The notes: generated by a model from the letters alone, not told the origin. A stretch of 64,000 nt of DNA from Catajapyx aquilonaris (GCA_000934665.2 JYFJ02000264.1:62001-126000), one strand, 5' to 3'; positions 10,337 through 64,000 are shown, numbered from the stretch's first letter. Made by a program: numbers and translations.

Positions 10337-30810
<20,474 letters not shown>

Positions 30811-37400: not shown

Positions 37401-38674
37401 AGATCCATCCCTGGTGTGCATTTCTGGAAGTCAGTCCAGCAAGGGATGCTTTAAGGTTCTGGACAGCTTGGCACCTGCTGAAGAACGGCGTGTGGAGGTG
37501 TGGGTCAGGGCACCAGATGTGGAAGAGGAGACCACTCTGAGGATGGTGATGTACTATGAATCAGAAGGTGGCAGGGCAAGGGTTGACAGGCACAGCTCAG
37601 TGATTGAAGCCAAAGGTGGGTTGAGGGTGAGAGCAGCAGCAACCAGATGTTTGCCCAGTGATAATGGAGAGGAGGAGGGAGAGGAGGGATTGAATGTGGC
37701 ACTTCAAGTGAGGAACTGTAGAGGAGAGGAAGATGTGAATATCACCAGGGTATCATCTCTTGGAAAAGGATGGGTGCTATCTGAGCAAACCTCGCAGTTG
37801 ACTGGTGAGTCATGTTATATGCCCTTCTACTTTGCCCTGAAACATTCGTTGACCTAACCTGTAGGGCAATGATGGTACACTTAACTTCACAAATGCAAAA
37901 TTGTACTAGGCAGTTGCTTGTATGAACATGGAAATGCACCTTTGCTTTATAACAGACCTGACATTTCTCTTATTTCCAGCTGTACTCTTAAAAGCACAAG
38001 AGGAGTGTCTCATGAGCTTGAAAGCCCACTGGCAGGGCAGCCTGACAGGTGAAACAGTGGGCGACATCTCACTCTCTGAAGACTCTCTTAATTCACTCTC
38101 TACCACTCCTCGACTTGAATTCTGTCGTCAGTGGCTTGGTGACCTACCAACTCCACCCATGACCTTGATTGTTGCATGGTCATCTGGAAACTCAGAAGGT
38201 CAGCATCACTCCACAGTCATTCTCAATGAAACCACAGGCCACAATGTGGTGTCCTATGGGGTTACACACCAACGGAGAATTTCTCACTCATTCCGGAAGA
38301 GGAAGGTGTGTGTGGTTCCAGTTACATTACACCTTCAGAACTGCAGTGATTCAGAGGTTGTCATCACTGTTGATGCTGTGTCGCCTAGGAGTCTGGCCTA
38401 CAAGAATCGACTATATTCTCCCAAGAGTTCTCAATGTGTCAGGTGGGTTGGGAGATGTGTGGCTAAAGAAAAAGTTGAAGCTCACAAGCAAGGGTCAGTG
38501 GCACTGAGGGCAGCTGTATCGAGGCCAGGTACATACGACCTTGCTGGGCTGCAGGTCTCTTGTAGTGTTGGAGGTGAAGTCAAAGTGCAGGCCTGGCAGC
38601 TGGAGAGTACCCTGGTGGTGACCGATGTGGATGGAGTCAGTTCGGGTTGCGGGCAGTCCGATCTCATGGTCTAA
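31476..38674 (+). CDS. TRAPPC8: trafficking protein particle complex subunit 8 (TRAPPIII, Trs85 homologue), 8 exons, 1230 aa
   Basis: Exons 31476-31618, 31808-32054, 32130-32720, 33212-33841, 34978-35163, 36523-37078, 37160-37804, 37980-38674 sum to 3693 nt; recognisable motifs MAQC, TPWFESWRECFLQ, DHEFTKHYLAC, APELQVRRLGDLCF, DQAWMHYAGALEMAA, SALLLEQAAHCF, RKYAFHAVLAGHRFSKAGQ; AATAAA near 38786. Confidence 0.96.
32838..32910 (+). mobile_element. degenerate tRNA-like SINE head in TRAPPC8 intron 3
   Basis: A-box-like TGGTTTAGTGG and B-box-like GGATTCAAATGC at tRNA spacing; cloverleaf imperfect; different from the 2740/20039 family. Confidence 0.5.
35496..35545. mobile_element. hAT (Charlie-like) terminal fragment
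   Basis: CAGGGGTGGGCAAAGTGCAGCCCG resembles hAT-Charlie termini; a second hAT-like end GGAACCCCTGGTTGAGAA lies near 36173-36190 in the same intron. Confidence 0.4.
35906..36071. mobile_element. right-end fragment of the Tc1/pogo-type MITE also found at 42972-43565
   Basis: Near-identical to 43391-43564 (GCCAGCACTTCGAGTT...AAATTCGAGTTAGGGAAGTTTATTTCCTATTATTTTACATTG); ends CTTATAGAAGTTTTACTG followed by TA. Confidence 0.8.
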
Positions 38675-40578
38675 AGTTATGGTGCAATGTCCTTTTCCTA
38701 TGCTTAGCCATGAATTTTAGAAGTCCTTGTTTTGTTTTTGTAAATACGGAGTTAATGCACTGAGCTGGAGTTATGGTGGTTTTCGTAATAAATATATGTG
38801 CAAAGTTACACATCTTATTTTATTTGGATGTTAATACAGTATTTGATTTAACAATGTAATTAAGTTGTGTATAAGTGCTGATAATTGCATGATGGGCATT
38901 TCCATGATGCATCTGTCCGTTCGTAACGCAAGTTTTGCCTACGTGCACAAGTGTATTTTATTATAACAATGCCAGGATGCATGCACTGCATGCTTAATCC
39001 ATTTCATGCAATGTGTGTGTATTGTTACAATAAAATGCGCTAGTACATGTCGGCCAAACCTGCGTTACGAATGGACAGTATGTCTGTGTTTGCGTGGAAA
39101 TGCCCTGATGCAGTGGGCCCTCCATGTATGTGGAATCATTGTAAGTAATCTAGAGATTTACTTAATGTATACAGGAGTATGTGCATATAGATTATATGCA
39201 AATCCTGTGTCATTGTACACTGCATAAAGCACTTGAACATCTGCAGCTTTTGCTATCTGCTGGAACCAATCCCCCCATTGACACGGGACCCACTGTATAT
39301 TGCAACACCACTTATTCGAAATGAGTTATACTTTCAATGTGCTGAGTGAAGGCCTTCATCTGCCAGAGCTTCGAGTGTCCTCAGTCTATACTCATCCTGA
39401 TGAGGGGTTGTGGTTGGATCCCTGTGCCAACCTCCCTGTCCCTGTACCTTCTAGCTGGCCCCCCTCTTCCCAAAAGCAATTCCCAATAACCACACTTCAG
39501 AGTACTCATGTTTGTATCCTCATCCACTGGAGTAGGAGGGAGGTCAGTTTCCTAACGAGAACAGCATGAAACGGCTGGATGGAGAGCATTGGGTTGTGAT
39601 TATGCACCCTATCTTTCAATAATTCGTTACCATATGCCATATGGTGAACTCACTGCTGATCATGATGCCCTGACGTGAATATAATTGTACTTACACAATG
39701 TGTAACTACTTATGGTCTTATGTCATGGATCTGAAAATAATTTTATTGCTTCAATTGTATGAACCGTTACAATGCAGTATGAAATATGGATTTTGGTCAA
39801 CTTGAGGTTACACCCCCATTTGAATTATACTTGTAAGTTATTAGTGCAGCAAGCTCAAGTGGCATTTATCAGCCATTGTAAGTTGGTTCTACTGGATTTT
39901 ATCATTACAAATATACAATCCTTCACTGGGAAGGCTGTAGGCAGGTAGACAATTTTCAAAAGACGATCCCCGGCATTCTCTCTCTTTCCCATCTTCGACG
40001 CGTGTTCGAAGCGCGGGAAAAAGGTCCTGACCAATGATAGCGGAGGAGACGAAGGAGGCAACGTTCCAGTCTCAGATCGGGGGAGCTCCACTATAGCTCC
40101 ATATCCCTGCCTTCTCCAGAAACATCCAGGTAAGATTTGAGCTAATAGCCGATAACCTCCGAAATTTTGTGTGCTTGAGACGCGACTGCGTGAGGGACAT
40201 CCTCAACCCCTCATACGTGTCACACACGAGCATAATTTAGCATCATTTCATCCACATTTTACTGAAACGAAACACCTGTTACGGCCGTGTAATTTAAGCA
40301 CAATCCGTCATGATTTATATGGAAATTACCGGTTGGGAATGCACCTCTCAGACTGTAAACTAGCACTGCAGTGTTTGTATTTAGGTCAAATCGATATCGT
40401 CACGTTGAGGTGGAGTGGGAATTATGATCAATGACGATGACGGCCTGTCCACATTGCAAACTTTGCGCCTGCTCCTGGCCGTATCAAGTGCTGATGTTAT
40501 ACTTGATCAAATATTACTTTTTTCTACTTCATTTGACGTATTGGTTGTGGGTGTTCCCGCAGGCTGGGAGCGTGGTCC

Positions 40579-41737
40579 ATGATGGCTGTTGAAGCTCCTC
40601 AGGTGCAGTCTCCTGTCGAAGCGGTCAGGAGGTACTTGGATACTGTCCCTCAGGACTTTTCCGTCCGGGAAGAGCTATGCAGTTATCGGTTTTGGAAGGC
40701 GGCCAGGGCAGAGGTCATGGCGGCTATGTTTTTGGTCATTTTCGGATGTTCGACAGTACGTTTTAAAGCTGCCAGGAATCGTATTTTGATGTGTACGATA
40801 CTGACAGTTTTGAGCGTGTCGCCTACATTTGACCCCGCAATATTGTATCTAGATCACATCACCTTCCGATGACACATGCCATCGGTGCCTCAACAACTGC
40901 ACAGCCAGGAGTCATCCCGTTGGTCGGTCATCATCCGGAAGTGACTTGAGGGCAGCCTTGGCCTTGGGTTTCACGGTGACCACCCTGGTCCAGTGTGTGG
41001 GCAACGTCAGCGGGTGCCACTTGAACCCTGCGGTGACGGTGGCCATGTTGGTCACCAGGAACATCTCCCTCCTCCGGTCGGCAGTCTACGTTATGTGTCA
41101 ATTCCTGGGGGCTCTGCTAGGGGCACTGGTCCTGGGGTCACTGGGGTCGGAGGCAATGGGGGTCACCTGCGTTGGGGTTGGAGTGTCAGGGAGCCAGGCC
41201 TTCGGGGTGGAGTTTCTGGCCACTTTCCTGGTAGTCTTTGCCACCATGGCCACTCTTGAGCCGCAGAGGTTGGATGCTGGGTTTAAGGCAATGTCCATTG
41301 GTTTGTCCTACACAGTGGGACATCTTTTCGGGGTAAGTTCGGGTAGGAACTCTTTCATTAGTCTATTAACACTTTTGTTTTTGTACAGTATGAATATACT
41401 GGCGCCAGCATGAATCCAGCGAGGTCACTGGGTCCTGCAGTCGTGTTTAACACATGGGACTACCATTGGGTAAGTTTAGAAGACAATGCGAAGATTGTCT
41501 CATGATTGGTGCTTATTGGCTTCTTCACAGGTGTATTGGGTAGGGCCCATCCTGGGAGCTATTTTGGCTGGATTTACGTACGAGTACACCCACGATTCAT
41601 CACCGCAAGGTCACTTTCTCCGGAGGTCATTTCGAAGGAAGGGCAATTCACGTGACCTGAGACGGGAAGTGAGCATGTTTAGCAGCAACACAATGGAGCT
41701 CAACACTCCTTGTGGAAGCCACGATGGAAGGATGTAA
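40579..41737 (+). CDS. aquaporin (MIP family, AQP4-like/Drip-Prip-Bib grade), 4 coding exons, 314 aa
   Basis: Exons 40579-40755, 40853-41332, 41389-41469, 41531-41737 (945 nt); FWKAARAE, SGCHLNPAVT, GVEFLATF, YTGASMNPARSLGPA, HWVYWVGP; probable non-coding first exon ending at the CAG|GTAAGA donor at 40129. Confidence 0.95.
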
Positions 41738-44337: not shown

Positions 44338-45991
44338 TCACTTGCAAATACATGTTGTTCGCCACCAGGCCACAAAGTCGTTGAAACAGAGAACAAATGC
44401 ATCACGATACGCTCCAACTCTGAAAGTGCAAATTTAATAATTTTTAAAATATTCAAGTCCAAAAGTTACCGTAGTGTTAACACTACTAAATCGGTGTGAT
44501 TTATGAAACACTTACCTGTTGTTTAATAAGATTATATTATTATCGATGACCCACATTCATTACCTGAGCACATAGGAAAAAAAGTCGAACACATTATGAA
44601 GAATGGCGATCAGATGCACGTAGGGGTAGACTGACGGCTTCTCAGAAGTATCCCAAAAACTCAGGTACATGACAACGTAGGGCATGGCTGATACTGTGAA
44701 GGACCCAGCCAGGAACAGGAACAAGATAAGCAAGCGTTGTTCTCTCACCACCAGTTGTGCCTTTGTTGTAGATCCAAGTTCACTGTTTGATCAAATTGAA
44801 GGATTACCAGTAGGCTACCATAGTGATTTTTAAAATATTATCTGGACTTTCTGGAGGCTATATACTCGTACACGTAGAAAGGAACTACTTACGGAATAGT
44901 TGAGATTTCTTTTTGACTAAGCTTTAGTTTGACTACAATGAAAATGAGGGAGGTGACCATAACAGTCCAGGACGTGAGAAATGCCAATCCCACGTAAAGG
45001 TTGATCCGAATCCATGCCGATGATTGGAGCAGAATACATTGGCCGGCTTTGGGACTGTAGCCGAAAGTGCCCTGATCCTGGAGAAATTATATTAAATGTT
45101 GTCAATTACACAACGAGGTATCATAACGGAAAAAGAACTGTTGAAGATGCACATTTCATTTTCCATTCACATGTTTGGAAGCGCCATTGTCGTCATTTTT
45201 TTACATAGCAGATTATAGGCCTTTTATTGTAGCAGGTTATTATATGTAGGCCTGTACCTCAAGGTAGAGGAGCGAAAATGGCAGGAATGAGAAAATCCAT
45301 ATTCCCAAAATTGCTTGCAGGCCGTGGCACTTCAAAAATAACCGTCTGTGGAGAGACTTATTCCATAGCATCAAAGCTCTGAAAGGATAAGATTGCATAA
45401 AGTTTCTTAGCCTGATTCTTTTGACGTGTCCATGAATATTGCCTTGCCTGCAGAGAATAATTGTCGCAAGTGTATTCCACAGTAAAAGTCCCAACGAACA
45501 ACGCAAGAAGGCAAGAAGCTGACAGGAAGTCTCACCATAGATCCAGCCTCCTCGAATGTAAGTTAGGGCAGCCAGTGGAAGAACAAAGGTGCAATACAGG
45601 CAGCTGGAGAGATTCAGGTTCAGCAACAGAATGGTGGTTATTCCCCGAAGTGGGCTGCACAGATTCATATTTCAGCGTCGGGTTAATAAATCCGAATATT
45701 TTAAATTGCTAGGACATGTTAGAGTAAGTTTTCTAAGACAGTAGGGACGAACTTGTAAGGATCCTTGCATTGTCTTCTTGCGTACGGAAGCACAAAAAGA
45801 CACAAAAAGTTCCCTATGCCTCCGAAGGCAGAAATTGTTAACAGATAAGGCACCGCAAAGTTGATAAATGTTTCGGACAAGTCCGGGAAGCAACATATTG
45901 TGTCAGAATACTTTTGAACACAGGCCACAGACACTTGTACAATAGTCCAATTACACAAAAAATCCGAGTTGTTGAAACGAGCTTCCACCAT
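44338..45991 (-). CDS. divergent class A GPCR (Tre1/Moody-like), paralogue A, 6 exons, 350 aa
   Basis: Exons 45991-45753, 45654-45448, 45378-45258, 45077-44893, 44782-44564, 44419-44338 (1053 nt); seven hydrophobic segments, TM1 GN, WIYGETSC, ECL2 FGYSPKAGQC, REQR before TM6, helix 8 YRDAF; intron 2 has a GC donor. Confidence 0.85.
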
Positions 45992-46633
45992 CACTACTGC
46001 AATCTACGCGTATTGGGGCGGCTGATTATTATTATTATCGGAATACAGCATGCACGCAGTATATGTGCTGCCACTGAATGTGCACAGTGTTGCTTTGTAT
46101 GTACACTGGGTGTTAGGCAAGTGTTTCATTGTGGACAGTATCCTGCATTAAGTCAGTAAGCAGGATGTAAAAGAAACTACAAATAAGTGGATGTCCTATA
46201 CTGCTGTATATCAAGAGCTAGCCCTTGTGTATATAAGTATAGAAATGAAAGGAGAATCTGCTTTATGCCATTATGACAATGGTTGCTCATTACTATCACA
46301 AATATATACAGTATTTAGGCTTCGTGAGGGGATACACAATCATGATATACTCGTAACTGGTTTGTTAACGTAACTTATTGCTAGCATTCAATGCAATGCT
46401 AAAGCTAAGGCAGTAGGGGGGAAGGGGCGGCAAGGGGAAGGGGAATGGGACAAACCGACAAACCTTCCCCTTTATGTAATTGTATAAAAATACCATATCG
46501 ATTTCCTTTACCTACATTTAACACGTTACCTATTACCGCTATTGGCAGGATGTTAGTCGTGACCATGTCGTGACAGTCAGAATTTAATGGGTCTTAAATG
46601 AATCAGAACACTGCACTGTCCTGCTAAACCATT

Positions 46634-48404
46634 TTATTTCAATGACAAGGCACCATACAATTTTCTTTTCATGGACGTTAAGAAGAATATCAGTGCACTT
46701 CGGTAGTAACTGGTTCTGAAAGAAGCAGTCATTCCGTGTCAGTACTCAGTAATAGGTCATAACATTAGCCATATTTTTTAATACCTAAGAAAGTAGATGC
46801 AGAAGCTGATAACCACATGAGTTGTTGCTAAGATATGCATGTAGGAGAAAGCTGTGCTGCTGGAATTCTCCCAGCAGCACAAGTAAGTGAGGACAACAGG
46901 TAGTATTGGCAGTATGAATCCCACTGCCAACAATGTAAACACCAGAGCCATTCTCCTCTCTCTTGCGAGTAACTGCTCTCTTGTTGATAAACTCACGTCT
47001 CTACATATTACTTACATGTACATATTACATATATATACATCACTAACATCAGTAACGACAATGACAAAGTGAATTAAATACGCTACTTACGCAACTGACG
47101 TGACTTCTTTTCTGCTGCGATGAAGTTTGATCCACAGTAGGACAAAGGATATGACAGTGACAAAAAATGGTATCATATCTGAGATTCCTACTGTCAAGTA
47201 AGCTCTTTCGCTCTTTCCAGGCATGATCATGCACTGACCAAGCCTGGCATTGTAACCGAACGTTATGTCGTCCTGTAGAAAATGTAAGAAGAGCAGACTT
47301 TAAAAATATATTTTTTTTTGTGTGACTCACTTGAAAATTGCCAGAAGATGACGGACAAAATACTGTACATTATGACATCACTTTATGCTGCCGCGTTTCA
47401 AAGGAAAGTACCGTTTGGCTGTATAAATTCGTGAACGCTTTTACACAATAGCCAATATCACACAATAGCATACATTTTTGTTTTTGCAACTAATGGACAC
47501 AAATAAAATGCTTTTAGGAGCATATTTCGGACCAATATTGCAACAGACGGAGGAGTATTGGCAGCGAGATAGCTTTCCATAGGATTTTAAATATACGATG
47601 CCACTGTTTGGTTGAAAAATGCTTTGCTTTTGACGGTTTTTCCAAGACACCTAAGATACATACGTACATTCAGAAAAAGCAGGGCATATGCGATGAAAGA
47701 TATTGCCCACAGGCACGCTATTGCCGGAACACCTCCTATTGTTTCGAACGCTATTTTATAAGCAAATGGAGACCAGTTATGAAGAGCGCTGTAATCATGA
47801 GGAGCTAATTACTGTCACTCTACAATATGTTAATGGCATTATTTATAAGTAGGTGAAAAGTACTCACCTGCTAAAAATCATAGTAGCCACGTTATTCCAA
47901 CTTGTCATTGTTAATGTGCGACGTGTGTAAGCCATTACATGACATAGCGTATGTCCATATGGCCAACTACGGTGAATATAGGTCATCCCAATAAGTGGAA
48001 GGATAAAGCAGCAATATATGACTTCGGAAAAACTGTAGCTGATGAGCAAGAGCGTGCTGAAATTTCGCCCATCACTGAAAACATTTTGCATAATGTGTGT
48101 TAGTCCATTGCTAACTACAAAGGGTATACGCCAACCTAACCGTACTGCACCTGATTCCTGACTCCTTGAAGTGATATTTCCAGGCATAAGTAAGTACTCC
48201 CAAGTTGAGCAAGTTCTCCACGGTACCGACCACAGCTATCAATAGGTAAAACACTGACGCAAACTGAATGAAGTGATCCGAGAATCCAGGATAGCAACAT
48301 TGGGGTATAACTACCAAGTCGAGACATGCCTCTGACAAATTTGCACCATTGTTAGAGCACCACAAAGAACTGTTATGTAAGGCAGGGATCGGATCAGGTG
48401 CCAT
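46634..48404 (-). CDS. divergent class A GPCR, paralogue B, 6 exons
   Basis: MAPDPIPALHNSS start; same intron positions and phases as A; WPYGHTLC, FGYNARLGQC, RERRM, YYRSAL; frame open across all six exons. Confidence 0.87.
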
Positions 48405-48789
48405 GTCTGTGCCCCTATACTAAACTGCACTAATTGTTTCATTTTGAAATGCGCAATAAAATGTGTAGCTGTTGAGCAGGATGTGCTCCCAGGCGTTGAA
48501 AAAGTACAATAGTTGAGTTGTCGGAAATGAAAATTAATGATGCATAAAGTTTATAAATAACCTAAGTTAATGAACTATATTCGTTGACTGTTGCACTTTC
48601 AAAGTGACAGAGCTATTGCATTCGCAGGGATCATGCAGGGCATTTATGATAGTCACCTGAATACTGGCAAACCTCCAAAGTCGGGCCATGCAGGGTGTTT
48701 CATAAATATTTAGAAAAGCTTATACGTTGGTCTCCTTCGCACCAGAGAATCACTCCAGCCATGTTTATAGCTGGGTTGGAAGCCAATTT

Positions 48790-48865
48790 ATTTATTCATT
48801 CATTTTAAATTTTTCTTTTGAATACCCCGTGATAGGGGGAGACCCTCTTGGGGGGACAGATCCAC
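48790..48865 (-). mobile_element. isolated 3' end of the SINE (or its partner LINE)
   Basis: Minus strand CCCCCCAAGAGGGTCTCCCCCTATCACGGGGTA plus A-rich tail shares the TATCACGGGGTA terminus with both full SINE copies. Confidence 0.55.
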
Positions 48866-49902
48866 AAAAACAATGAAGAATGTATACAAAGCAAGAAAAA
48901 GTAACGAAACGCGAGAAAAAAGGGTACTACATGTGATATGCGTGACGCGACATGTGATAAACTTTTATAATGTACTTTTTATTTGTGAATCATTTCAGTA
49001 AGACAGTAACAATAGGTGTTGAGCTCAACTACTGACATCTATCTCTCTTAAAGTGAATAATAATATATGGTGCCCATGTGCCAATAGTTTTCTCTTCATT
49101 CGTCTGAATCATTCTAATCACCGTTTGTGCGGGTGCTGCATTTTTTTTTGGGGGGGGGGGGGGAATATCCCTGTTGTGATTACTATTAAATCCATTAATT
49201 TTGTCTTATTAAGAAAACCTGATATGATTCTAAATATTGGAGGGACGTTTCTATTGTCGTCAACTATAGTGAGTTATAGTCTACAAGTAGTTTCCGGTTG
49301 GAAGCATTGTGTTTCCGTATGATTGGGCACCAGCTTATCGCTCAAACAGTTTTTGCTTGAGAAGGATTTTCTGTACATAAAACTACATAATCTCTATTTT
49401 TAGAGCCACGTCTCACTTCTCACAAGTGCTGCGTTCAAAGAGTGATTATAATTATTCTTCATATAAGGATTAAATTAATTACTAGTTCCTGGTAGAGTCG
49501 TTCATGAAACCGTGTCATATAATTATGGTAATACTTTTGGTGTGCATGTGATTGGGTATAGTATAGGAGGGAAAATGCTTGGAACGTTGGATCTTCATTT
49601 TAGTTTTTATAGTAATGGTGAATGAGGCTCCAAGTGGTTTTCCAAGTACTAATAGGCCATTACATATTGTCATAGCTAGTTTGATAGTATAGGGAACAAG
49701 TAACATAGCAGTCAAATGCAGGAAAATAGCATGTTGTTGGAAATGAAGCAGCCCGGATTGATATCAGTTGTGAAGGGGAGACTGAAGAATGTAATATTCT
49801 CTCAGGAGTCTATGCAAGCAGAAAGTATATTGCCACCATTGCAAGGTTTAATAATAAAGTCAATCAGCAACTCGTATTTAAAAAAAATGCTGTAGTGTTT
49901 TA

Positions 49903-51544
49903 TTACGAATCATCCGTTTGTGTGGAAATAAAATTGCGAAATCTTCTTTTGGTATCGTTGAGAAAAAACTTAATCGCACTTCGGTAATAGTTGACTCTGA
50001 AAAGCAAGGTAAAAAATTAACTGCAACATTAAATATTTAGATTATGTCAATTATTTACAACGGTTATCGCGCAATGGATATTAAAATACATGCCACATGA
50101 GTTCCATAAATTAACTGCCATTTCATTGATATGGTTATTTCCACAATCTCTATATGCGCTTATTTTGCACTTGCCCATCAAAGAAATACGGTATGTTGAA
50201 GATAAATGTGTTTGTGTTGTTAAGCAGTATTAAGTTAATTTGAGTTCCCTAAAAGAAAGTGACACATACACACACGATAAGGTATGAATATGACTTACCT
50301 CATAAAATAGACCCAAAAGTCTATAATCACGTGGCTCATGGCTAGAGCGTGCACATATGCGAAGTAAACTGCATAAGAATTTGTCCAGCAACAGAATACT
50401 AATATGATGGCAGGCAGTACTGGGAGAAGGAAGGAGAGTGCCAGAGCTGCAAACAAAACAGCGGTCCTTCTCTCCCTGATTAACAGCTGTTCCACTGTGG
50501 AATGTCCCACCTCACTGGAAGGAAATATTGAGTCAGAGCTTGGTCAGAGGAACGTTTAATATCGGGATGGCCATTTCTGGAACTTACCCAAATGAAGCCA
50601 CTGTTTTTCTACTGCACCACATCTTGATCCAGAGAAATATAAATGATATAATGGTGACGAAAAAGGGAAAGATATCAAGTAATCCCACCACGACGCTTGC
50701 TAACTTGCTTTGTCCAGGAATGATCATGCATTGACCAATCACATAGTTGTATCCAAAAGTTACTTCACCCTGAAGAAAAGGATATGACTGTGTAGGTTTT
50801 CTTTTTACATAATGTGGTCAATACAATGACTCCCGCAGATATGCTCACATCAGCAAATAGAATTAAACAAGTCATCCATGATATAATCCACAAGCATGCG
50901 ATGGCTGGTAAACCTCCCATGGTCCTGAATATGACTTGATAAACAGTCGGAATCCACAAGTGGAGCGCACTGAATTGAAATATTTCATCTTACTAGTTAG
51001 TACAGTGTCATTACTTAGTGATCTACTCCGTCACTCACCTACTAAATATCATAGTTGTCACGGTGCTCCAACTAGTCATCCCTAATGCTTGACGTAGATA
51101 AGCTTGTATAATGCATAAGGTATTGCCATACCGCCATCCCCGGTTAATATAAGTCATTGCTATTAATACCAGCGAAAATGAGCAGTACGTAAATTCAGAT
51201 ACACTGTAGCTTATAAGTAGTAGAGTGTTGAAGCTCCTGCCATGGCTGTAAATGACACGATTCATTACACCCTATGGAGAAACAGTGAAATGAATGTATT
51301 ACCTGTACGAGTCGCTGTATCGACACAGCCAAGCATAGCTCAAAACTATGATGTTGAGTAAGTTTCCCAGACTTCCGATAACAGACACAATCACATAATA
51401 AACCGACGCAAACAAGACGAAGGCAAGGGAAAAATTCGGAAAGCAGCACGTTGGTATAGGATCTAACTCCACACATGTTTTCGACAAGTTCACAGTTTCA
51501 CCACTACACTCGGCAGAAATTTCTAGCAGAGTATTATTGTTCAT
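49903..51544 (-). CDS. divergent class A GPCR, paralogue C, 6 exons
   Basis: MNNNTLLEISAEC start; LGNLLN, WRYGNTLC, FGYNYVIGQC, RERRT, DFWVY, YYRSAI; phases consistent. Confidence 0.87.
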
Positions 51545-51952
51545 AGGGAACCCCGCACGATGCTGCCACTGATATTGCACCTTTGACAATGGCCTTTGCC
51601 CAGCAGTTGACGTTTGTCGTCAGCAGTTGCGTGTGAAAGAGAAGGATGCTAAAAACAATGCCGGATGGCGTAACTCAAATAATTGATACACCCAATAGTT
51701 CGTACTTCTCATTGTGATAGTGTAGCGGATTACATTATGATTGTGTGTAACGAGTAAAGTAATTATTGCTGCAGTTTGATTTTTAAAATGGAGGAAGAAT
51801 TGATGTCCAATGATGCACCTGAGACGGTCTATCGCAATCGCATCTATATGCTTCGATCTGATTATAATCATTGCATTCTAGATCGAACTACGTGGTCTGT
51901 TCCTTCAACTTGTTATTGCACGAGTGGCAGTGTGGATTTAAATGACGTCTTT

Positions 51953-53544
51953 TTAGCACAGGGGAGGAATTCTATGTGTTTTTCTGCTCATATCGGTGAA
52001 GAAAAACTTCAACGCGCTGCGGTAGTAACTCAATCTGTGAAACAGAAGCAATTATTATGTTAATGATGTTGTCATACTTCAAAGGCTAGGGAAATTACCT
52101 AACGAAATATACGAAAAAGTCGATTATGACATGGGTTGTTGATATGACATGCGCATACGTAAAAATAGACTTGTGGGAATCTTTCCAGCAGCAATATTCT
52201 ACAATCACAACTGGCATAACGGGTAGAATAAGAGAAAGTGCCAGAAATACAAACAAGCGTGCCATCCTTCGCTCTCGAATTAATAGTTGCTCCATTGTGG
52301 AACTTGCCACTTCTCTGTAACACAAAGTGCTATCAACATATATGGATAAAATATCTGTAAAGTCTTTTAAAAATAATGCTACTTACTGAACAGATGATAT
52401 TGATTTTCTGCTTTTCCTCATTTTGATCCATAGAAATATGAAAGAAACGAGAGTAAGGACAAAAGGAACACTGTCGCAGAGTCCCACGACGATGTTGGCT
52501 GTTTTACTCTGTCCAGCCATGATCATGCATTGCCCGTCCGATATGCTGTATCCTAATGTTACCTGATGCTGGATGAGATTGACATTGTAAAATATGTTTC
52601 TAGCTCCAGTTTCAACCTTTACTATTGCAAAGAATGCCATTATTAATATTTGCCTCAATAAGTCTGAATAATTTTGAAAGCTTGCTTTTTGGCATTTTAA
52701 AATAGTCCTTGAATGTTAAAACAAGTAGTACGTTATACAGGATGGTCCATACTGATGGTAGCTGGATGGTAGCCTACTTCAGATCGCCATATTGCACTAT
52801 ATTATTGGTGTGCTATTTACTTCCTCACATATCACAAGAGATACAATAAGTATACTCACGCTAAGAAAGAGCAGCAGATATGTTGTTAGGGATATAATCC
52901 ATAAAATTGCAATTGCTGGTCCACCATCCATAGTTTCAAAGAGCACGCGATATACAGACGGGTGCCACAAATGTAAAGCCCTGCAGAAAATGTTATTGAT
53001 TCATGACTTATTATGGGCCTGACTGCCTCTTCTCAAACCTGCTTAGTATCATGGTCGTCACAATGTTCCAACTTGTAAATCCTAGTGTGTGTCTAGTGTA
53101 GGCCTGAATATAACAGACGGTTCTGCCATAAACCCATCCTCGATTTAGATACGTCATTCCCATCAGCGAGAGGGAAAATGAGCAGTATCCAAATTCGGAC
53201 ACACTGTAGCTGATGAGCAGAAGAGTGCTGAAGTTTCGTCCATCACTGAAAGACACATCTTACTCGAGTGAAACAAATCACTGGTAATGAAAATAAGAGC
53301 CTTACCTGTATGAATCAGTAAAATGACGCTGCCAAGCGTATATCAAAACAATGATATTTAGCAAGTTTTCAAGGCTTCCCACAATGGCGATTGTAATGTA
53401 ATACACTGTCGCGAACTGGATAAAATAGGGCGAGTATTCCGGAAAACAACAAGGCTCTGGGTGATACAACTCGACACACGCTTCAGACAAGCCATGACTT
53501 GTGTCGTTGCTCCATTTCGTGTTGTTTTGGACACTAGAGCACAT
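51953..53544 (-). CDS. divergent class A GPCR, paralogue D, 6 exons
   Basis: MCSSVQNNTKW start (inferred); LENLLN, WVYGRTVC, LGYSISDGQC, RERRM, DFFVY, YYRSAL; phases consistent. Confidence 0.87.
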
Positions 53545-54192
53545 GGTTGGGAGCACTGATATAGTATGTGTGGTCTTGGCCTGGTCTACACTTAATGTTG
53601 CTAGATGTGTATGTCTGAGTACGTGAAGCACGTGAAGGGTGACAAGGTTGCGAAACAATGGTGTGTAGGTGTCAACAAAACTCATCTGATTGCTATTAAA
53701 TTATTTCATAAGCGGCGGATGAGCCTAATATTAAGATGGTTGGTAAGCAGAACGGATACAATGCGATGTAGTCATTGTGTCACTATATTTTACAATAATA
53801 GTCATCGACGTAATAGACTAAGCCGCCTGATGATGTCGCTAGGCCGATGTAGGTTATATCATATATACGATGGAATTGCTTAATCGTTATGTTACTTTGC
53901 TTCAACGTAAAATTAATATTTCAATTAATATAATATTAATATTAATATTGCAAAATTGTACAAACTAACAAAAACGCATCTTTGCGTTGCACAACTACGA
54001 GCCATTATTTCAAGAACCCTTCTGATGGTTGTATACTGCGAGCAAACATTTTTTTCCATTTTTTGGGATACTTAACTGATTATTATCGGAGGCCATGAGG
54101 CGTCACATGTCACATGTCTATTGATTGGTCACCAGAGACAGAATAAGTGGCGCGTTAGGTGAATCAGAAAAATGTCATGCACAAACAATGAC

Positions 54193-55757
54193 TTAACTGA
54201 CAATATTCAATTTTCTCTTCACGGTCGATAAGAAAAATATAAATGCACTTCGGTAATAACTGATCCTGAAATAAACAGAATTTGTCAGTATTTAGGAATA
54301 TGTCACAACATAAGCTACATCACCTAAGAAAGTAGACGCAGAAGTTTATCACCACATTATTTGTTGCTACGACATGTACGTAGGAGAAAACTGTGCTGCT
54401 GGAATTCTTCCAGCAGCAGAAATAACTGACGACAACAGGTAGTAATGGCAGTATGAACGACGCAGCTAAAAGTGTAAATAGCACAGCCATTCTCCGCTCT
54501 CTTGCGAGTAACTGCTCTCTTGTTGATAAACTCACATCGCTACATAAATCATGTTATGAAATTAACTTCAACAACAACAATATGAATTAATTACGCTACT
54601 TACGCTACTGACGTGATTCCTTTTCTACTGCGATAAAGTTTGACCCAGAGTAGGACAAAGGATATGACAGTGACGAAAAATGGTACCAGGTCTGAGAGTC
54701 CTACTACCAAATTAGCCGTATCGCTCTTTCCAGGCATGATCATGCACTGACCAAGCGTAACATTGTAACCGAACGTTACATCTTTCTGTGGAAATATAAA
54801 GAAGAGAAGCTTTTAAAAATAGTTTTTGTCACTTTAATACCTGGAAACCCAGAATATGGCTGACAAAATACTGTACATTACAACACAATTTATAACTTAT
54901 AATTTATAAACTTGTATCGACGGAATATATTACGGTATGCGTTGGTAAGGTGACTGGAATATAAAGTAATAATTTTTTAAAATATTTTTTACTATCCAAT
55001 CATTTGAAAGATACTCACGTCCAGAAAAAGCAGTACGTACACGATGAAAGATATTGCCCATAGGCACACTATTGCCGGAACACCTCCCATTGTTTCAAAC
55101 GTTATTCTATAAGCAAATGGACACCAGCTATGAAGAGCTCTGGAATAGTAAAAGTCGAATAAATTAATCTCACACATTCAATGTCACATTTATAGATGGT
55201 GAAAGGTACACACCTGCTAAAAATCATAGCAGCCACTGTATTCCAACTTGTCAGTCCTAAAGTGCGACGTGTGTAAGCCATAACTGAACATAGCGTATGT
55301 CCATATGGCCAACCACGGTGAATATAGGTCATCCCAATGAGTGGAAGAATGAAACAGCAATATATCATTTCAGAGCAACTGTAGCTAATTAGCAGGAGCG
55401 TATTGAAATTTCGCCCATCACTGAAAACATTTTGTACACTGTGTAAATGCACAACTAACTACAAAAAGTATACATCAATATACAGTAAAAAGTAGGCCTA
55501 CTGTACCTTAGTGATGTCTCACTGAAGTGATATTTCCAGGCGAAAGAAAGTACTATCAAATTGAGCAAATTCTCCACAGTACCTATAACACCTATGAGTA
55601 GGTAAAACACTGACGCAAACTTGATGAAGTGATCCGAGAATCCTGGATAGCAACATGAGGGAATAACTACTAAATCTAGACATGCCTCTGACAGATTGGC
55701 ACTATTGTTAGAGCACCACGAAGAACTGTTATGTAAGGCAGGAATCGGAGGTACCAT
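54193..55757 (-). CDS. divergent class A GPCR, paralogue E, 6 exons (closest to B)
   Basis: MVPPIPALHNSS start; WPYGHTLC, FGYNVTLGQC, RERRM, NFCVY, YYRSAF; phases consistent. Confidence 0.87.
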
Positions 55758-56294
55758 GTTTGTTCCCACACTAAACGGCACTAAATTTTTGTTATTGAAA
55801 TGTGAACTAGAATACTAGATAATGAATAGCTGAGGTGTCAGGATGTGCGCCAAGGTATAGTATACAATAGTGATGAGATGTCAGAAATTAAATGACGCGT
55901 AAAGTTGGCGCGAAACAAAAGTTAATGAACCTTTTATTGGATGTTGTATTTTCAGAGTGACCTCTGTTTTTTTGACTGATGGGACATGCCAAGCATGATT
56001 TTTTTAAAGTCACCTGTCTCCTGCCAACGGAAATATTCAAGGTCAGTTACTGTAGAGGGTTGAGTCAGAGTGTGATCTCCAGGGCACCAGAGGATCACTT
56101 TATGCATGTTTTTGGCTGTATTGGGAAACTTTTTGAGAATGATTTAATGAATATTATTGCATTTTCTACCAGTATAGAGGTTTTATTTCATCTCCGCAGC
56201 CACGTTATTGGTTTCAAGCTCAAGTAGCAAAATATTCATAATATTCATAATAATAATAACAATAATAATTTTATCATTTTATTTCATATCATTT

Positions 56295-57715
56295 TTACAA
56301 ATAACTACTTGAAAAGCTTCCTCTAACTCGCAAGTAAATACTTCTGAATAAGTACACAAATGCACTTCGGTACCCGTTGATTCTGAAGTTAGAAAATTGA
56401 TTTAAGATGTATGAAAATGCTTGCTAATAGAGTAATGCCAACCTGAGGTAATAGATGAAGAAGTCAATGATGACGTGTATGGAGTATCCCATGTGAAAGT
56501 ACGGATAGTACTGTTGCTTACTTTTGTTCCAGAAAAATATGTACATTATAATCCGTGGCGTTGCCGGAAGAATGAAACATGCAGCAACAAGGCAAAAGGA
56601 TGTTATCATTTTGTATTCTCTCTTTAGCAAAGCATAGGATGTGGACGCTCCTACTTGTCTGAAACAATAACAATTTGAAATAATATGTGGACACAAATTA
56701 TTTAAATTCGAGTAGGCTACTGCAGACTTACTCAATTGAAGAAATACTGCATCTACTAGATCTCACTTTAATCCATATTAAAATGAGTGAGGCTATCGTA
56801 ATTAGGTAAGGAAACAAAGTACAGAATGCGACTAATATGTTGGCGTGCTCTTTCGCTCCGGGCATTATCATGCAATTGCCTGCTGAAGCACTGTACCCAA
56901 ATGAAACATAATCCTGTGGAAAACAATATTTCACTCGTAAGAAAAATAGTGGCAGGTTTTCTGCCACTTAACTTACTGCCGAGTAAAAAAATGCATCTCT
57001 TGTAAGGGACATAATCCATATGAAACAGAGTGCCGGTACTCCCTTAAATGTTTTAAACATTTTGGCATATGCAGATGGATGCCAGAGCTGTACTGATCTG
57101 AAAATGGTTACAAATACATTGTTCATGTATGTATTTTACAGACATGCAGTTTGAATACCGTGTACAGGAGTTATGTTTCAAGCTGAAAAATATTCTTACT
57201 TGCTTAAAATAATGGCCGTTACTGTGTAAATGTTGACGGCTGCAAATGATCTTCCGAAATACGCCATAATTGCACAAAGTGTCTTCCCATAGTACCATCC
57301 ATTGTTGATATAAGTCATCGCAACCAGAGGAAGCACGAAAGAACAGTAGCAGAAATCAGAGACGCTTAAACCAGCAAGTAGGAGTGTCGTGAAATTCCGA
57401 AAGTCTCTGAAATGTATTCAAAGCACTGAAAGTTTTTCATACACATATTGCTTGACTCCGTACTTACCTGAAATTGCTGCAAGATCGGTTTTGCCAAGCA
57501 TATGTGAGGGCAGCTATGTTCACTAAATTTCCGGCGCTTCCGAGAACAGCAAGAGTATAGTAATAAATGGAGGCAAATCGTACAAAATCAGGTGAAGACC
57601 CGAAAGCATAGCAGCATGATGAAACAGGATCAATAGCCACACATGATGCCGAGAAATCTTTCTTTTCGTGACACCACGACGCAGAAAGATTGTTATGCTC
57701 ACCAGGAGAAAACAT
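56295..57715 (-). CDS. divergent class A GPCR, paralogue F, 6 exons
   Basis: MFSPGEHNNLS start (an upstream in-frame ATG at 57766 is possible); AGNLVN, LSVSD, WYYGKTLC, FGYSASAGNC, KREYK, DFFIY, GYRSAF. Confidence 0.86.
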
Positions 57716-57965
57716 GACTAACCAGCCGGAATTGCCTAGCAATGAAATTGGCAGCTGTATAATCATACAAGTACGTCATGACAAGTCGGACAGACTGTCA
57801 GCAAGCAACGATATAATAACTACTGCGACTGGAATGCATCGAATGAGTCTTCGCAATATCTAGGATATCATGAAGCCAATGCAGCAACGTTCTGCGTGTC
57901 AGAAATTCAATGTTATTTCTAAGATGATTCAGGAATGATTCAGAAGAACTTTTGAAATGACACTT

Positions 57966-58730
57966 TTACTTCAGAACGGGATACAAACAGTGTCGACAAT
58001 AATAAGTGGTATTGTAATTTGGCGGGGTTTTAGCCTGGGTGATATCGAAGCACTTGATGCATATTTTGGGGTTACTTTCAACATGAGCGTTTCGGCACAG
58101 GCAGGTTTGGCCATGACTGGATTCGTTGGGCTTCATCTTGGACTTCAAGCATTCGCAGCTGAAGCAATCGTATCCAGTTACAGACTGGACCGAAGTGGCC
58201 TCAGGGCACCAGTCATGAGGAAGGTGTCTGTCTACTCTACGTGCTACACACACCATTTCCTGCGTGTAATGAATAACAAAGAGTGGCATGTAGTGTACCA
58301 GAAGCCAAAACAATACAGTTTTGACTGAAGGGCATATTGCATCACCTGATCTGAAGGGCATTTTATCATTAGTATCCATTTGATGTAAGTAATCACAGTT
58401 CCTGATGGATGAGCTGGCCTGCATTTAAAGAGGTACTGCGACACTGCCACTGCGGAACATTAATTACACCTGTCACATCGCATGTCTTAAAAGTAAGCAT
58501 TAATACTTTGTGTCGACTTACCAGTAGTTGAATCAGGTAATGCGGGTCTTATGAAGCATGGAATAAAGCACCCGTATACCCATAAAGCAACTAAAGCTCC
58601 CAGGATGGTGATAATTGCTACCTTCGCGCTTGAAAATTCTGAAGCAAATAGATTTCATTACTGCCTCACTGTAGAGAATGTTAAAAATTAGATTACTGAC
58701 ACTACTCTTACCAGTCAAAAGGCCTGCCAT
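57966..58730 (-). CDS. orphan Cys-rich secreted or signal-anchored protein, 4 exons, 177 aa
   Basis: Exons 58730-58712, 58638-58522, 58449-58346, 58259-57966 (534 nt) joined by 73, 72 and 86 nt GT-AG introns in consistent phase; MAGLLTEFSSAKVAIITILGALVALWVYGC hydrophobic N-terminus; 15 Cys including CxxCxC, CxC and two CxxC. Confidence 0.62.
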
Positions 58731-60387: not shown

Positions 60388-62355
60388 TCACGGAGACTGA
60401 TTCAATTTTCGTTTCTTCTTCGTGCACCTTCGAATTTTGAGCTCCAAAATCAAAGTCAAGGCAGATATTGTGATTCCTGTCAACCATACCTGAAACATGC
60501 CCTTAAGTTTTGTCACAGTAAGGATCAGGTCTTTGCGGATGTCACGATAATTTTCATTGCGAATTTCTTCCAAATTGGCAATAAAATTAGTGAAGAACTC
60601 ATCCCCCAGGAATTTGTCAATTAAGCCGCTTTCGAATAGAATGAAGACCCATTTGTACAACTGCATGTTCATAGGATCTCCTCGAGATGCCGCAGCAGAA
60701 TAATAAGACTGCAATACCGCCTCTTCGTTAAACCTGACTATGCAATTACCTTCATCGTCAATAAAGTGATATAGCTCCCTTATGAGCAATAAGTCGACTC
60801 CAACGCAAGCAAAATCTTCTGTCAAGGTTTTTCGTATGCAATCAGCTCGCTTTTGAAACATGACTGGATTCTCCATAATTGTAATCAGGTGTTTGATGCC
60901 CGATAGAGTAGCGCAATTTCTAATCAGAACAAATTCTAGCATACTAAGTCCCCACCTAAAAGTAGAGAACAGTAACTCATAAAATGTTTCAGGCAGAGGT
61001 TCACGAGGAGGCCAAGTGAGATACGCCACCAGCTTGGCTTTGTAACCACAAACTATTACAATAGAGAGAAAAAGTAAAACAGAGCCTAATGCGCGAAAGA
61101 CCGAAACCCTAGGCACTGTCTTGGGTTGTTCAATCAAATCTCGCAAAATGTAAGCAATTGCAAATTTGAATGATATGTGATGTTTGATCTTACCCAAGAC
61201 GTAGAAGGCAAAAGCAGCTGTAAATATGTAAGTAAGAAGAACCAACCAAACGGTGGTCTCATAAGGTCTAAATATGACCAGCCAAGTAATAACCCCGCGA
61301 GGCATTCGCGTGAGAAATTTCTTCTGGGTATAAATTACCGGCGGAGTGAGGAATATGGCTCTACTTATCTCAGGGGTAAACCCCATTAGCATAATTATGT
61401 CTGCCTTTTCCCTTTGTACCTCACCAATCATACCGTCCCAGGTTCCGTTTGGGTGTTGAAATTCGATCTCTGCACGTGTGATTTCTTTCAAGTAGAAGTC
61501 AAGCTTGCAATCGCCCAGTTCTTCAAGTAACATCAGTGTTCTCTCGAAAGGGGTCAGGTAGTTTCCACCGTACTTCTTTTTCCTGTCTCTTGCACCGTCG
61601 ATGTCAATTTCTTCGTAAAACACGACCATCCAGATCTTTCCGTTCAGCCTCACAGGTCTATTTCCATAATAAGTTTCAAAATGATGCCTCCGATTCGGGT
61701 CAAAGTAGCCTGTTTGCAAAACGCCATGATGACCTCCACGTATGCAGTAGGGACAGATAGTCATCATCTGAAGGCTTTGGGTTTCTGGGTACATGCGAGT
61801 GACCATCTGGAACCTGATTGAATAGGCTGGAGCACCTGTCAGTACCGGATCTAACGGCTCAAGTCCAGGTCGGAAGTGGAACAGGAATCTGTCATGAAAT
61901 GGTCGAAGTCGTACTGAAGCCAAGGTGTTGATTACTAACTGTGGGAACTTAGTAGTGGATGATGCAATCATCAGGTGAAAATTGCAAAATGTTCCTCCAG
62001 GCCACACTCTTGACTGCAGTTCCGGAGGGATGCTTCTGAAATCCATGAGCTCTTTCTCATTTACCAACCAGCTGTAGTCGTAGTAAGAATGAGTGAACTC
62101 TGTCTTCTTGAGTGTCATAAGAGCCAGGTACAGTTGTGACTGGCGAATCATGATGTCCTGCATAGAGGCACTGAATTTGGGTTCGTCCGTTGAAACAACT
62201 AGGGCACAATCGCGTCCATACTTTGAGTTGAACACTTCGAGCACGAGTTGATGCAAAAGGCTGTCTTCCAAAGACACATTCGTTAGCGTCAAAGGGTAAT
62301 TTGCATATACAGCAGCAGAGCACAGAAAGGCAAAGAGAAGTGGGAAGTGCGTCAT
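60388..62355 (-). CDS. divergent ionotropic receptor (IR, iGluR-related chemoreceptor), intronless, 655 aa
   Basis: Signal peptide MTHFPLLFAFLCSAAVYA; S1 PNGTWDGMIGEVQREKADI; M1 FRPYETTVWLVLL; pore segment LIEQP; YKAKLVAYLT equivalent to SYTANLAAFLT; ESGLI and LKGMF before the last TM helix. Confidence 0.92.
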   Translation of the reverse strand: MTHFPLLFAFLCSAAVYANYPLTLTNVSLEDSLLHQLVLEVFNSKYGRDCALVVSTDEPKFSASMQDIMIRQSQLYLALMTLKKTEFTHSYYDYSWLVNEKELMDFRSIPPELQSRVWPGGTFCNFHLMIASSTTKFPQLVINTLASVRLRPFHDRFLFHFRPGLEPLDPVLTGAPAYSIRFQMVTRMYPETQSLQMMTICPYCIRGGHHGVLQTGYFDPNRRHHFETYYGNRPVRLNGKIWMVVFYEEIDIDGARDRKKKYGGNYLTPFERTLMLLEELGDCKLDFYLKEITRAEIEFQHPNGTWDGMIGEVQREKADIIMLMGFTPEISRAIFLTPPVIYTQKKFLTRMPRGVITWLVIFRPYETTVWLVLLTYIFTAAFAFYVLGKIKHHISFKFAIAYILRDLIEQPKTVPRVSVFRALGSVLLFLSIVIVCGYKAKLVAYLTWPPREPLPETFYELLFSTFRWGLSMLEFVLIRNCATLSGIKHLITIMENPVMFQKRADCIRKTLTEDFACVGVDLLLIRELYHFIDDEGNCIVRFNEEAVLQSYYSAAASRGDPMNMQLYKWVFILFESGLIDKFLGDEFFTNFIANLEEIRNENYRDIRKDLILTVTKLKGMFQVWLTGITISALTLILELKIRRCTKKKRKLNQSP

Positions 62356-64000
62356 GGTATGACTTCTTCTGTTGCTTTTTCGAACCTGATTGCCTTCTAT
62401 GTATAAGCTTATACTTTCAGCATGTCAGACACAGTAAGAAGTGGTACAAATATTGCTAAGTAGAGGTTAATATGTTGACACAAGGTTTGATGTAAGCCCG
62501 ATAGTGACAATGTGGAAATGTAATACCTTGTGCAATATTTATTATCTATATTTAGTAATTCATGCCTGATATATCTGGCATCAAGAGCAATTTTGCTTTG
62601 TCAACAGTATGTATTTTTAATGCTTCACTTACCAAAATGAAAAGTGACGTGAAAGACATCTTACTTGATCCTGAGAAAATGTATCCACTTTACACTGCTG
62701 TAGACCAGTTCCATTTTGCCAATAAGTTATGCATTTACAGTAATATAACTTGTATATTGTAATCGCTTCTCAACATTACATTAATGAGCTGTCAACTAAT
62801 ACAATTCTTGCAAAAATTGTATTGCATAAATTATTGTAAAATACGTGTCGATCGTGGTAGATAGTAAATCATGGACCACATGCTAATCTGTTTGTTTCCT
62901 GCTGTTCCTCACTTGGGCTACGTAATTACTGTAAACATTATTGGCATTCTGCCAACGAGTCTATACTACGCAGTTCACTTCCGAAAGCAAAACAATACGA
63001 TCTTAATTTTCTTGACGCCAGCAATTTGCCAGCAGAGCAAATGGACGACTGACTCTAAAATATTCATGTTATACAGAATGGTGGAGTATACTAATCTGGG
63101 AGAATTGGACAATCGTTTCTAGCAGGCTAATAACCGGCCCAAAGGAACTGTTTCGCATTCATGACGTTAATAATTTACATCGCGCACAAATACCACAAAG
63201 CATATACCTGGGAAAAGGCAAGGGAAATAGGTATAGCAAGTGTATTCGCGTAAGTTGGTTTACATCATCATTGGTCTTAATGAAAGGGCCATTTTTTAAT
63301 ACTTTTAGTACCGTCGTCAGATGTGTCAGAACACACTATAGTAGGCTATAAAATATATATGAAAACTGCTTTTCCTTAATATATTTCACCATTTTATAGG
63401 AATATCATACACAGAAAACGATTTGACATGAAAATGTGTATTTTTTTTGCCGAAACGTGTCATCGAAAATACCACACGGTTGTGTGAGTGAATTGAAGTA
63501 GGCTACACATAATATTCTGCCTCATAAAATATATGTACGTAGACTACTACATGTGCCATTCTTCTAACCTTCCTCAAATGTGTCATGTAAAAAAAAAACC
63601 ATTTTGGCGTGTTAAAAAAACAACACATGGCACACTGTTTTGGGCCAATTTACACAAAACTCAATGGCAAGATTGGCTGACACGGTTTTATGTGACATAT
63701 ATGACATTTAGTTATGTCGAAAGTGTGTCTCAGTTTTTTGTGTAGTCATGCGTACTACATTACCAAAACAGTGCCACGCTGTATGGCACTCACTCCGCTA
63801 TCTTGATATCCAAGCAACTTATTTTACCGGCGAGAGAAAATATTAGAACGAATCCAAGACAAGGGGCCTCTGTAGAATAAAACTATTGCTTCTCTGTAGC
63901 TCTGAAACCTAGAAACGTAAACCTGTCAGTGTTTCGCTTTGAGGTTTGAGTAGGAAACAAAGAATCTTTTGCAACCCCTAACATTACCACAGTTACATTA

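Follow-up and report, generated by a model that had tools for sequence, protein, structure and literature searches.

A 64,000-nucleotide stretch of DNA from Catajapyx aquilonaris (GCA_000934665.2, JYFJ02000264.1:62001-126000), referred to here as the window, contains a tandem array of six genes, G1 to G6, on the minus strand at positions 44338-57766. With high confidence, these are functional, anciently duplicated and highly derived class A seven-transmembrane (7TM) receptor genes allied to the arthropod Tre1/Moody orphan receptors (GPR84-like), and they belong to a branch that also holds crustacean sequences. According to the original prediction, made from the sequence alone, all six copies had lost the canonical class A activation motifs. 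Most of the residues concerned have indeed been replaced, but Arg3.50 is kept in three of the six copies and Pro6.50 in all of them.

The six genes lie head to tail and share one structure (Table 1), with six exons, intron phases 2, 2, 0, 2 and 2, and no internal stops. The internal exons are 207, 121, 182 and 216 nt in length, except that G1 has exons of 185 and 219 nt instead; the introns are mostly 57-110 nt long and the products comprise 349-395 aa. These models were assembled from coordinates, with G6 read base by base, and they bear out the earlier description of six intact head-to-tail genes with open frames and an identical six-exon structure. GT..AG borders are found in 29 of the 30 introns, the sole non-GT donor (GCAAGG) being that of G1 intron 2. 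This 69-nt intron (45447-45379, minus strand) is in frame and stop-free, so the G1 frame survives whether the intron is spliced or not; its retention would add 23 residues to intracellular loop 2 (ICL2). Translation of G4 and of G6 could begin at either of two start codons, of which the downstream methionines (53544 and 57715) match the N-terminal length of the paralogues. A tblastn search of the 64-kb window with the six proteins found no seventh copy and no fragment.

Table 1. Coordinates, exons and key residues of the six receptor genes (window positions; alternative starts of G4 and G6 in brackets).
Gene	Span	Strand	Product	Exons	2.50	3.49-3.51	7.49-7.50	Other positions
G1	45991..44338	-	350 aa	45991-45753, 45654-45448, 45378-45258, 45077-44893, 44782-44564, 44419-44338	Ser	CRA	DF	5.50 Ser
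G2	48404..46634	-	358 aa	48404-48136, 48074-47868, 47788-47668, 47272-47091, 47000-46785, 46715-46634	Glu	SSA	SF	
G3	51544..49903	-	353 aa	51544-51303, 51245-51039, 50969-50849, 50769-50588, 50514-50299, 49996-49903	Glu	SSA	DF	
G4	53685 (or second Met 53544)..51953	-	395 or 348 aa	53685-53306, 53245-53039, 52980-52860, 52568-52387, 52314-52099, 52034-51953	Glu	SRA	DF	
G5	55757..54193	-	349 aa	55757-55507, 55420-55214, 55139-55019, 54785-54604, 54539-54324, 54265-54193	Glu	SRA	NF	7.45 Asn
G6	57766 (or second Met 57715)..56295	-	370 or 353 aa	57766-57468, 57406-57200, 57097-56977, 56913-56732, 56658-56443, 56382-56295	Asp	SKS	DF	3.40 Ile

Contigs of run X5 provide evidence of splicing. A contig of 822 nt skips introns 2-5 of G3 exactly, with CT..AC ends on the plus strand, and a contig of 739 nt skips introns 4 and 5 of G4 exactly, its 3′ untranslated region continuing to 51577. 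Altogether, 6 of the 30 predicted introns are matched exactly by X5 joints and none is contradicted; in the DNA run X1, the whole region is covered and intron-skipping joints are absent. On the basis of these joints, X5 is inferred to be transcript-derived, with G3 and G4 spliced as modelled. X5 coverage is nil over G2, G5 and most of G1 and G6, which was treated as uninformative.

The attribution to class A is based on searches with single exons, with profiles and with the spliced proteins. The translations of exon 2 span transmembrane helices 2 and 3 (TM2-TM3). In a single-exon Pfam scan of seven pieces, all three queries containing exon 2 (those of G4, G3 and G1) matched 7tm_1 with 21.6-27.4 bits and E-values of 1.7e-4 to 2.8e-6, which, the queries being fragments, is below the family cut-off of 30.5 bits; the other four pieces had no match. 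In the Pfam scan of the array exons, 7tm_1 was the sole family above noise, and neither an ionotropic glutamate receptor (iGluR)-type fold nor a 7tm_6/7tm_7 chemoreceptor fold was detected, that is, none of the folds of ionotropic (IR), gustatory (GR) or odorant (OR) receptors. When the six exon 2 peptides were combined into a profile and searched against 1.84 billion representatives, 202 matches reached E ≤ 1e-3 (best 3e-16) and none reached E ≤ 1e-30, so the array family itself is absent from that library. BLAST comparison of the spliced proteins with 150 of the 202 matches yielded full-length alignments at 21-29% identity, with E-values down to 3e-28. Thirty relatives were looked up, and 17 of them carried organism names; 15 of the 17 are arthropod, mostly Tre1-like or moody, the usual labels being ‘protein trapped in endoderm-1-like’ and ‘G-protein coupled receptor moody’. 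All 16 relatives scanned with Pfam are 7tm_1 proteins (E 1e-25 to 1e-54). Judging from the exon 2 profile and the named relatives, the sequence homology of the array is higher to the Tre1/Moody family than to other class A groups.

A hidden Markov model (HMM) of 48 Tre1/Moody-like proteins matched all six spliced proteins over nearly their full length, with E-values of 3.9e-26 to 3.8e-38 (Z=1e6; the latter value is that of G1), and matched none of 30 shuffled controls. A word-index homologue search with G4 exon 2 returned seven candidates, none of them significant, and a search of the ESM Atlas with the G1 read-through open reading frame returned only generic 7tm_1 clusters. The class A anchors N1.50, C3.25-C45.50, W4.50, P6.50 and Y7.53 are present in all six proteins, and P5.50 in five.

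Among the known systems closest to the array is the Drosophila Tre1/Moody/CG4313 family of orphan class A receptors, regarded as GPR84-like, to which the best database matches and the full-length HMM match lead. Like the window genes, members of this family possess the anchors listed above, lack Trp6.48, have a helix 8 motif [EQY]YRxA and a short C-terminus and, for the most part, carry Arg3.32. NRY, C-[YF]-x-P and NPxxY characterize the family but occur in none of the six window genes. The latter also differ in changed Asp2.50, Tyr5.58 and Asn7.49 positions, in a longer ICL1 and in an extracellular loop 2 (ECL2) with the motif FGYxxxxGQC, and the identity to the family is 21-29%.

Microswitch residues were tabulated for the six window genes and 17 relatives, of which five belong to the crustacean sister group described below and 12 lie outside it. 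All 17 relatives have Asp2.50 and Asn7.49, each of which is found in a single window gene; position 2.50 is otherwise Glu in four genes and Ser in G1, and position 7.49 is Asp in four and Ser in one. Arg3.50 likewise occurs in 17 of 17 relatives, 10 of the 12 non-sister sequences having it within NR[YF], and in three of the six window genes; Tyr3.51 occurs in none of the latter. Tyr5.58 (14 of 17 relatives) is replaced by Phe in four window genes and by Leu in two, and Pro7.50 (11 of 17) by Phe in all six, where positions 7.49-7.53 invariably read D/S/N-F-x-x-Y. Trp6.48 is found in two of the 17 relatives, both outgroup rows; throughout the Tre1/Moody-like set, this position is already occupied by Tyr or Phe, and in the window genes by Ala, Ile, Val or Leu. 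TM6 reads P-x-x-P (S-x-x-P in G1), so that CWxP has lost its Cys and Trp but not its Pro. Thus the two motifs known to be functional in Tre1, NRY and NPxxY, are absent from all six genes. The tabulated Tre1/Moody-like relatives have NR[YF], except for Cyprideis P0001 (CRY), and NPxxY, except for Polypedilum P0170 (NNxxY). N1.50, W-x-Y-G, C3.25, the ECL2 motif [FL]GYxxxxG[QN]C and the helix 8 motif YRxA are kept. The core has also acquired new conserved residues: His7.45 and Asn1.53 in five copies each, and Tyr2.46 and Ser3.39 in four each. The individual motif readings given earlier (the DRY region, the Pro to Phe change in NPxxY, the TM2 Asp and the retained TM1 Asn, WxYG, Cys, ECL2 and YRxA) proved correct against this table.

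Searches from P0078, and then with a three-sequence profile, brought together a sparse group consisting of a Tigriopus californicus protein (XP_059083231.1, labelled ‘Tre1-like’), two Penaeus proteins (P. monodon, ‘moody-like’; P. indicus, ‘melatonin receptor 1B-like’), P0078 and P0161. Phylogenetic analysis employed a careful maximum-likelihood tree of 51 rows and 342 columns under LG+C20+F+G4, rooted on a Nematostella receptor; duplicates and truncated rows were left out of all trees, and four very long-branched rows out of the 51-row trees as well. The six genes form one clade in this tree (support 100/100) and are joined with the five sister sequences at 98/99; in quick trees of 55 and 51 rows, the Shimodaira–Hasegawa-like approximate likelihood ratio test (SH-aLRT) value was 100 for the six-gene clade and 98 and 99 for the 11-row clade. 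The branching order within the array is (G1,(G6,(G3,(G4,(G2,G5))))), and the stem leading to it is 2.58 changes per site. The 11-sequence clade itself sits on a long branch with a poorly supported base among Tre1-like and moody-like groups (64/7, 76/41), without the Drosophila references. A lineage-specific expansion related to Tre1/Moody, as proposed originally, is supported by the Tre1-like and moody-like identity of the best full-length matches and by the single clade; relatedness was therefore upheld by the phylogeny, but nesting inside Tre1/Moody proper was not, given the support at that base.

The grouping of the array with the crustacean sequences is backed, despite the long branches, by shared, tree-independent characters: non-Pro7.50, Trp3.40, the absence of Tyr3.51, a longer ICL1 and the ECL2 motif GYxxxxGxC. 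A residue other than Pro at 7.50 is found in 11 of 11 window and sister sequences (in the subgroup, Phe in three and Asn in the two Penaeus proteins) versus 1 of the 12 other relatives tabulated, and Trp3.40 in five of six window genes, five of five sister proteins and none of nine others. Phe7.50, the absence of Tyr3.51, the ICL1 insert and the ECL2 motif are found in all six window genes. N-terminal Cys residues are a further likeness, and the ECL2 of the subgroup reads [FV]GYxxxxxKC. Unlike the window genes, the subgroup keeps Asp2.50, Arg3.50 (as [S/T/E]-R-C) and Asn7.49 in five of five proteins and Tyr5.58 in two of five; the window genes have Cys3.51 in no copy and Asp2.50 and Asn7.49 in one copy each. 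They have also gained Pro6.47, His7.45, Tyr2.46 and Asn1.53, and are separated from the subgroup by the stem of 2.58 changes per site. By their residues, the window genes are a further-derived sister lineage and not as members of the crustacean subgroup in the narrow sense. A profile of the sister group, rather than the window proteins, had vertebrate GPR84 (structures 8j18 and 8g05) among its top PDB matches, with E-values of 1.5e-23 to 7e-23, together with alpha-1A adrenergic, H2, opioid, somatostatin and melatonin receptors; the GPR84 match covers the N-terminal half only (positions 32-179) and is not evidence of specific orthology. A literature search found no paper describing this Tre1/Moody-like clade or the NFxxY variant; supplementary tables of decapod orphan receptors (PMC8177520), which lay outside that search, may list sister-group members.

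The motifs were lost stepwise: Trp6.48 disappeared in the Tre1/Moody-like set at large, Pro7.50 and Tyr3.51 in the crustacean subgroup and the remainder on the array stem. This modifies the earlier attribution of the losses to the array: further losses do fall on its stem, but those of Pro7.50 and Tyr3.51, as well as the presence of Trp3.40, are shared with the sister group. In the ancestor of the branch, NRY would already have become [S/T/E]-R-C, and NPxxY N-[F/N]-x-x-Y. In the window lineage, the buried polar core would then have been rewired around Glu2.50, His7.45 and Asp7.49, with Tyr2.46 and Asn1.53, while Tyr5.58 disappeared from all six copies and Arg3.50 from three.

The array copies are 33-79% identical pairwise, G1 being the most divergent (33-38% identity to the other five). 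The ratio of nonsynonymous to synonymous substitution rates (dN/dS) is estimable for one of the 15 pairs, since silent sites are saturated in the rest. For this pair, G2/G5 (79% identical), dS is 0.35, dN 0.12 and dN/dS 0.35 (Fisher p 2.8e-9), and exons are 78-87% identical versus 54-76% for introns. In the other 14 pairs, the proportion of synonymous differences (pS) is 0.75-0.83 and that of nonsynonymous differences (pN) 0.26-0.46, with all frames open. Over the array as a whole, pN is far below pS in five of five pairs tested (Fisher p 3e-9 to 1e-48). The coding sequences thus indicate that the array is under purifying selection, as had been predicted. Instead of a ratio near 1 and no expression, the outcome named beforehand as contrary to the prediction, the data gave a ratio of 0.35 for G2/G5 and spliced G3 and G4 transcripts.

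These results bear on the possibility that the copies are decaying or non-functional duplicates, their motifs lost through relaxed constraint. Such decay could account for the very long stem, for the loss of otherwise near-invariant residues, and for the non-canonical GC donor and lost Pro5.50 of G1. However, open frames and intact splice sites persist past silent-site saturation, which argues strongly against pseudogenes, and the excess of pS over pN, the better conservation of exons than of introns and the spliced transcripts all point the same way. The novel residues are themselves conserved (Phe7.50 in six copies, His7.45 in five, Glu2.50 in four). The explanation by decay is consequently close to refuted.

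The most similar copies, G2 and G5, are not adjacent, G3 and G4 lying between them, and their 500-nt upstream regions are still 62% alike. The likeness points to a more recent duplication, whether of one gene or of a block, or to gene conversion. X1 DNA contigs break inside exactly these two genes. X1 depth is raised to about 63-66, versus about 35, at 46370-46843, at 48740-49213 and at about 56083; contigs at these sites have loose ends and short-sided joints (46472/46491 to 49141, and 48721 to 56083), and small indels occur at 48837-48842. The sites of raised depth probably mark a repeat dispersed among the intergenic spacers or a structural difference between alleles.

According to a study of Drosophila Tre1 (PMC5584160), replacement of the NRY Arg by Ala and of the NPIIY Asn-Pro by Ala-Ala each disrupts germ-cell migration, NRY acting via G-alpha-o guidance and NPIIY via a G-protein-independent Rho1/E-cadherin route. 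A non-canonical output of the window proteins is favoured because NRY, NPxxY and Tyr5.58 are gone while the ligand-side architecture and helix 8 are kept. Each protein would still fold as a ligand-binding 7TM receptor, with a glycosylated Cys-rich N-terminus, the C3.25-C45.50 disulfide, a conserved ECL2 lid, Pro6.50, Tyr7.53 and helix 8, and the canonical Arg3.50/Tyr5.58/Tyr7.53 route to G-protein activation would not be used. The output would be weak or G-protein-free, by way of arrestin- or Rho-type routes or a constitutive state; alternatively, the proteins would serve a canonical relative as decoys or binding partners. By family resemblance, a first guess at the ligand would be a lipid-like or other small hydrophobic cue. 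That signalling is atypical can reasonably be supposed from the residues; the fuller picture of folded, ligand-binding receptors with a non-canonical output is plausible but tentative. A working analogy is offered by class A receptors of atypical or decoy type whose DRY motif is altered, such as the atypical chemokine receptors, which are intact ligand-binding 7TM proteins with a degenerate G-protein-activation motif, maintained by selection. They keep Arg3.50 and NPxxY, and the changes in the window genes are more extensive.

The main rival to a non-canonical output is that the genes encode ordinary G-protein-coupled orphan receptors, ligand-specific paralogues of a receptor that signals canonically, whose motif changes are tolerated or compensated (Lys3.50 in G6, conservative Glu2.50 and Asp7.49, Phe5.58 for Tyr). 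Several observations favour this alternative and weigh against the proposed mechanism. Arg3.50 is retained in G1, G4 and G5, and Glu6.30, Tyr7.53, Pro6.50, Trp4.50 and helix 8 (YRxA) in all six proteins; the best-conserved parts are the base of ICL3/TM6 and the inner halves of TM2, TM3 and TM4; and within G2-G5 the intracellular half is slightly better conserved than the extracellular one (identity 0.66 vs 0.56). The kept Arg3.50, Glu6.30, Tyr7.53, Pro6.50 and helix 8, with the intracellular conservation, would fit a conserved intracellular transducer, possibly a G protein. The sister-group proteins retain Asp2.50, Arg3.50 and Asn7.49, and G-protein coupling in the absence of DRY or NPxxY is known from other receptor families. 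Nevertheless, ordinary coupling is judged unlikely. G2 and G3 have Ser3.50, against Arg in every tabulated relative; Tyr5.58, Trp6.48 and Pro7.50 are missing together, with Asn7.49 also missing in five of the six; and the Arg to Ala change in Tre1 NRY abolishes the G-alpha-o-dependent function (PMC5584160).

Other points count against the wider account. The ‘Tre1-like’ and ‘moody-like’ labels of the relatives are automatic NCBI annotation; long branches meet at the window clade, as a warning of the tree tool indicated; and spliced-transcript support is restricted to G3 and G4, where a low-depth X5 contig (52499-52745) is unspliced across the acceptor of G4 intron 3 and the run type of X5 is unlabelled. 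With these points taken into account, the explanation as a whole, comprising identity, sequence changes and a non-canonical mechanism, is held with moderate confidence.

It was originally suggested that the array might represent a new chemoreceptor family, which would make it part of a larger, fast-diversifying set acting in chemosensory neurons on external chemicals. Support for this is circumstantial: the tandem arrangement and deep divergence (33-79% identity), the slightly lower conservation of the extracellular half and the presence, 2.6 kb from the array and in the same orientation, of a divergent iGluR/IR-like gene that lacks introns. The loss of class A motifs also resembles that in nematode serpentine chemoreceptors. 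On the other hand, arthropod chemoreception is mainly a matter of IR, GR and OR channels, six copies are visible in the window, the G2/G5 ratio reflects constraint and not diversifying selection, and the small difference between the extracellular and intracellular halves is no evidence for diversifying selection. Among decapods, moreover, Moody and Tre1 homologues went undetected in P. argus olfactory sensory neurons, even though both showed enrichment in the P. clarkii lateral flagellum (PMC8177520). A chemoreceptor role appears rather improbable.

A different class A activation chemistry was also considered. The rewired core (Glu2.50, His7.45, Asp7.49, Tyr2.46, Asn1.53, Trp3.40) might replace the sodium pocket and the Arg3.50/Tyr5.58/Trp6.48/Pro7.50 switches, so that the proteins would act as proton, cation or environmental sensors or as constitutive scaffolds; the array, lying beside an IR-like gene, could then be part of an environment-sensing set. 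This is regarded as quite improbable. Within the core, G2 and G5 are distinguished by exactly two residues, at 7.45 (His/Asn) and 7.49 (Ser/Asn), and these differences suggest that functional tuning may be continuing.

Several other features lie in the window. An intronless open frame of 678 aa (60388-62424, minus strand) is located beyond G6. It has a weak Pfam Lig_chan match (E 1.6e-4) and matches solved NMDA, kainate and delta glutamate receptor structures (best E 1e-6), which together point to a divergent ionotropic-receptor-like gene. Directly upstream of G6, at 57939-58424, two overlapping frames, one of 152 aa and rich in Cys on the minus strand and one of 129 aa on the plus strand, have no Pfam match and are candidate frames only. 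On the other side of the array, a multi-exon TRAPPC8 gene occupies about 31700-38700 (plus strand; Pfam TRAPPC-Trs85, E 3e-44 and 3e-34; TPPC8 C-terminal Ig-like, E 7e-25), and the nearest Atlas cluster of one of its exons is commonest in Arthropoda. An aquaporin/MIP exon (40537-41413, plus strand; Pfam MIP, E 8e-32) is situated between TRAPPC8 and the receptor array. The assembly has a single N at 25743.

A few switch residues are commonly taken to define class A receptors, and Tre1 itself loses function when they are mutated; the six copies described here have replaced nearly all of them. The array has nonetheless been kept open, spliced (as seen for G3 and G4) and under purifying selection for long enough to saturate silent sites. 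The small crustacean branch without Pro7.50 is flagged by the same comparison; its members are publicly filed as Tre1, moody or melatonin-receptor proteins, with which a shared function is unlikely. The array may thus serve as a natural test of which microswitches are dispensable in a rhodopsin-class receptor and of the route by which this family may have entered non-canonical signalling.

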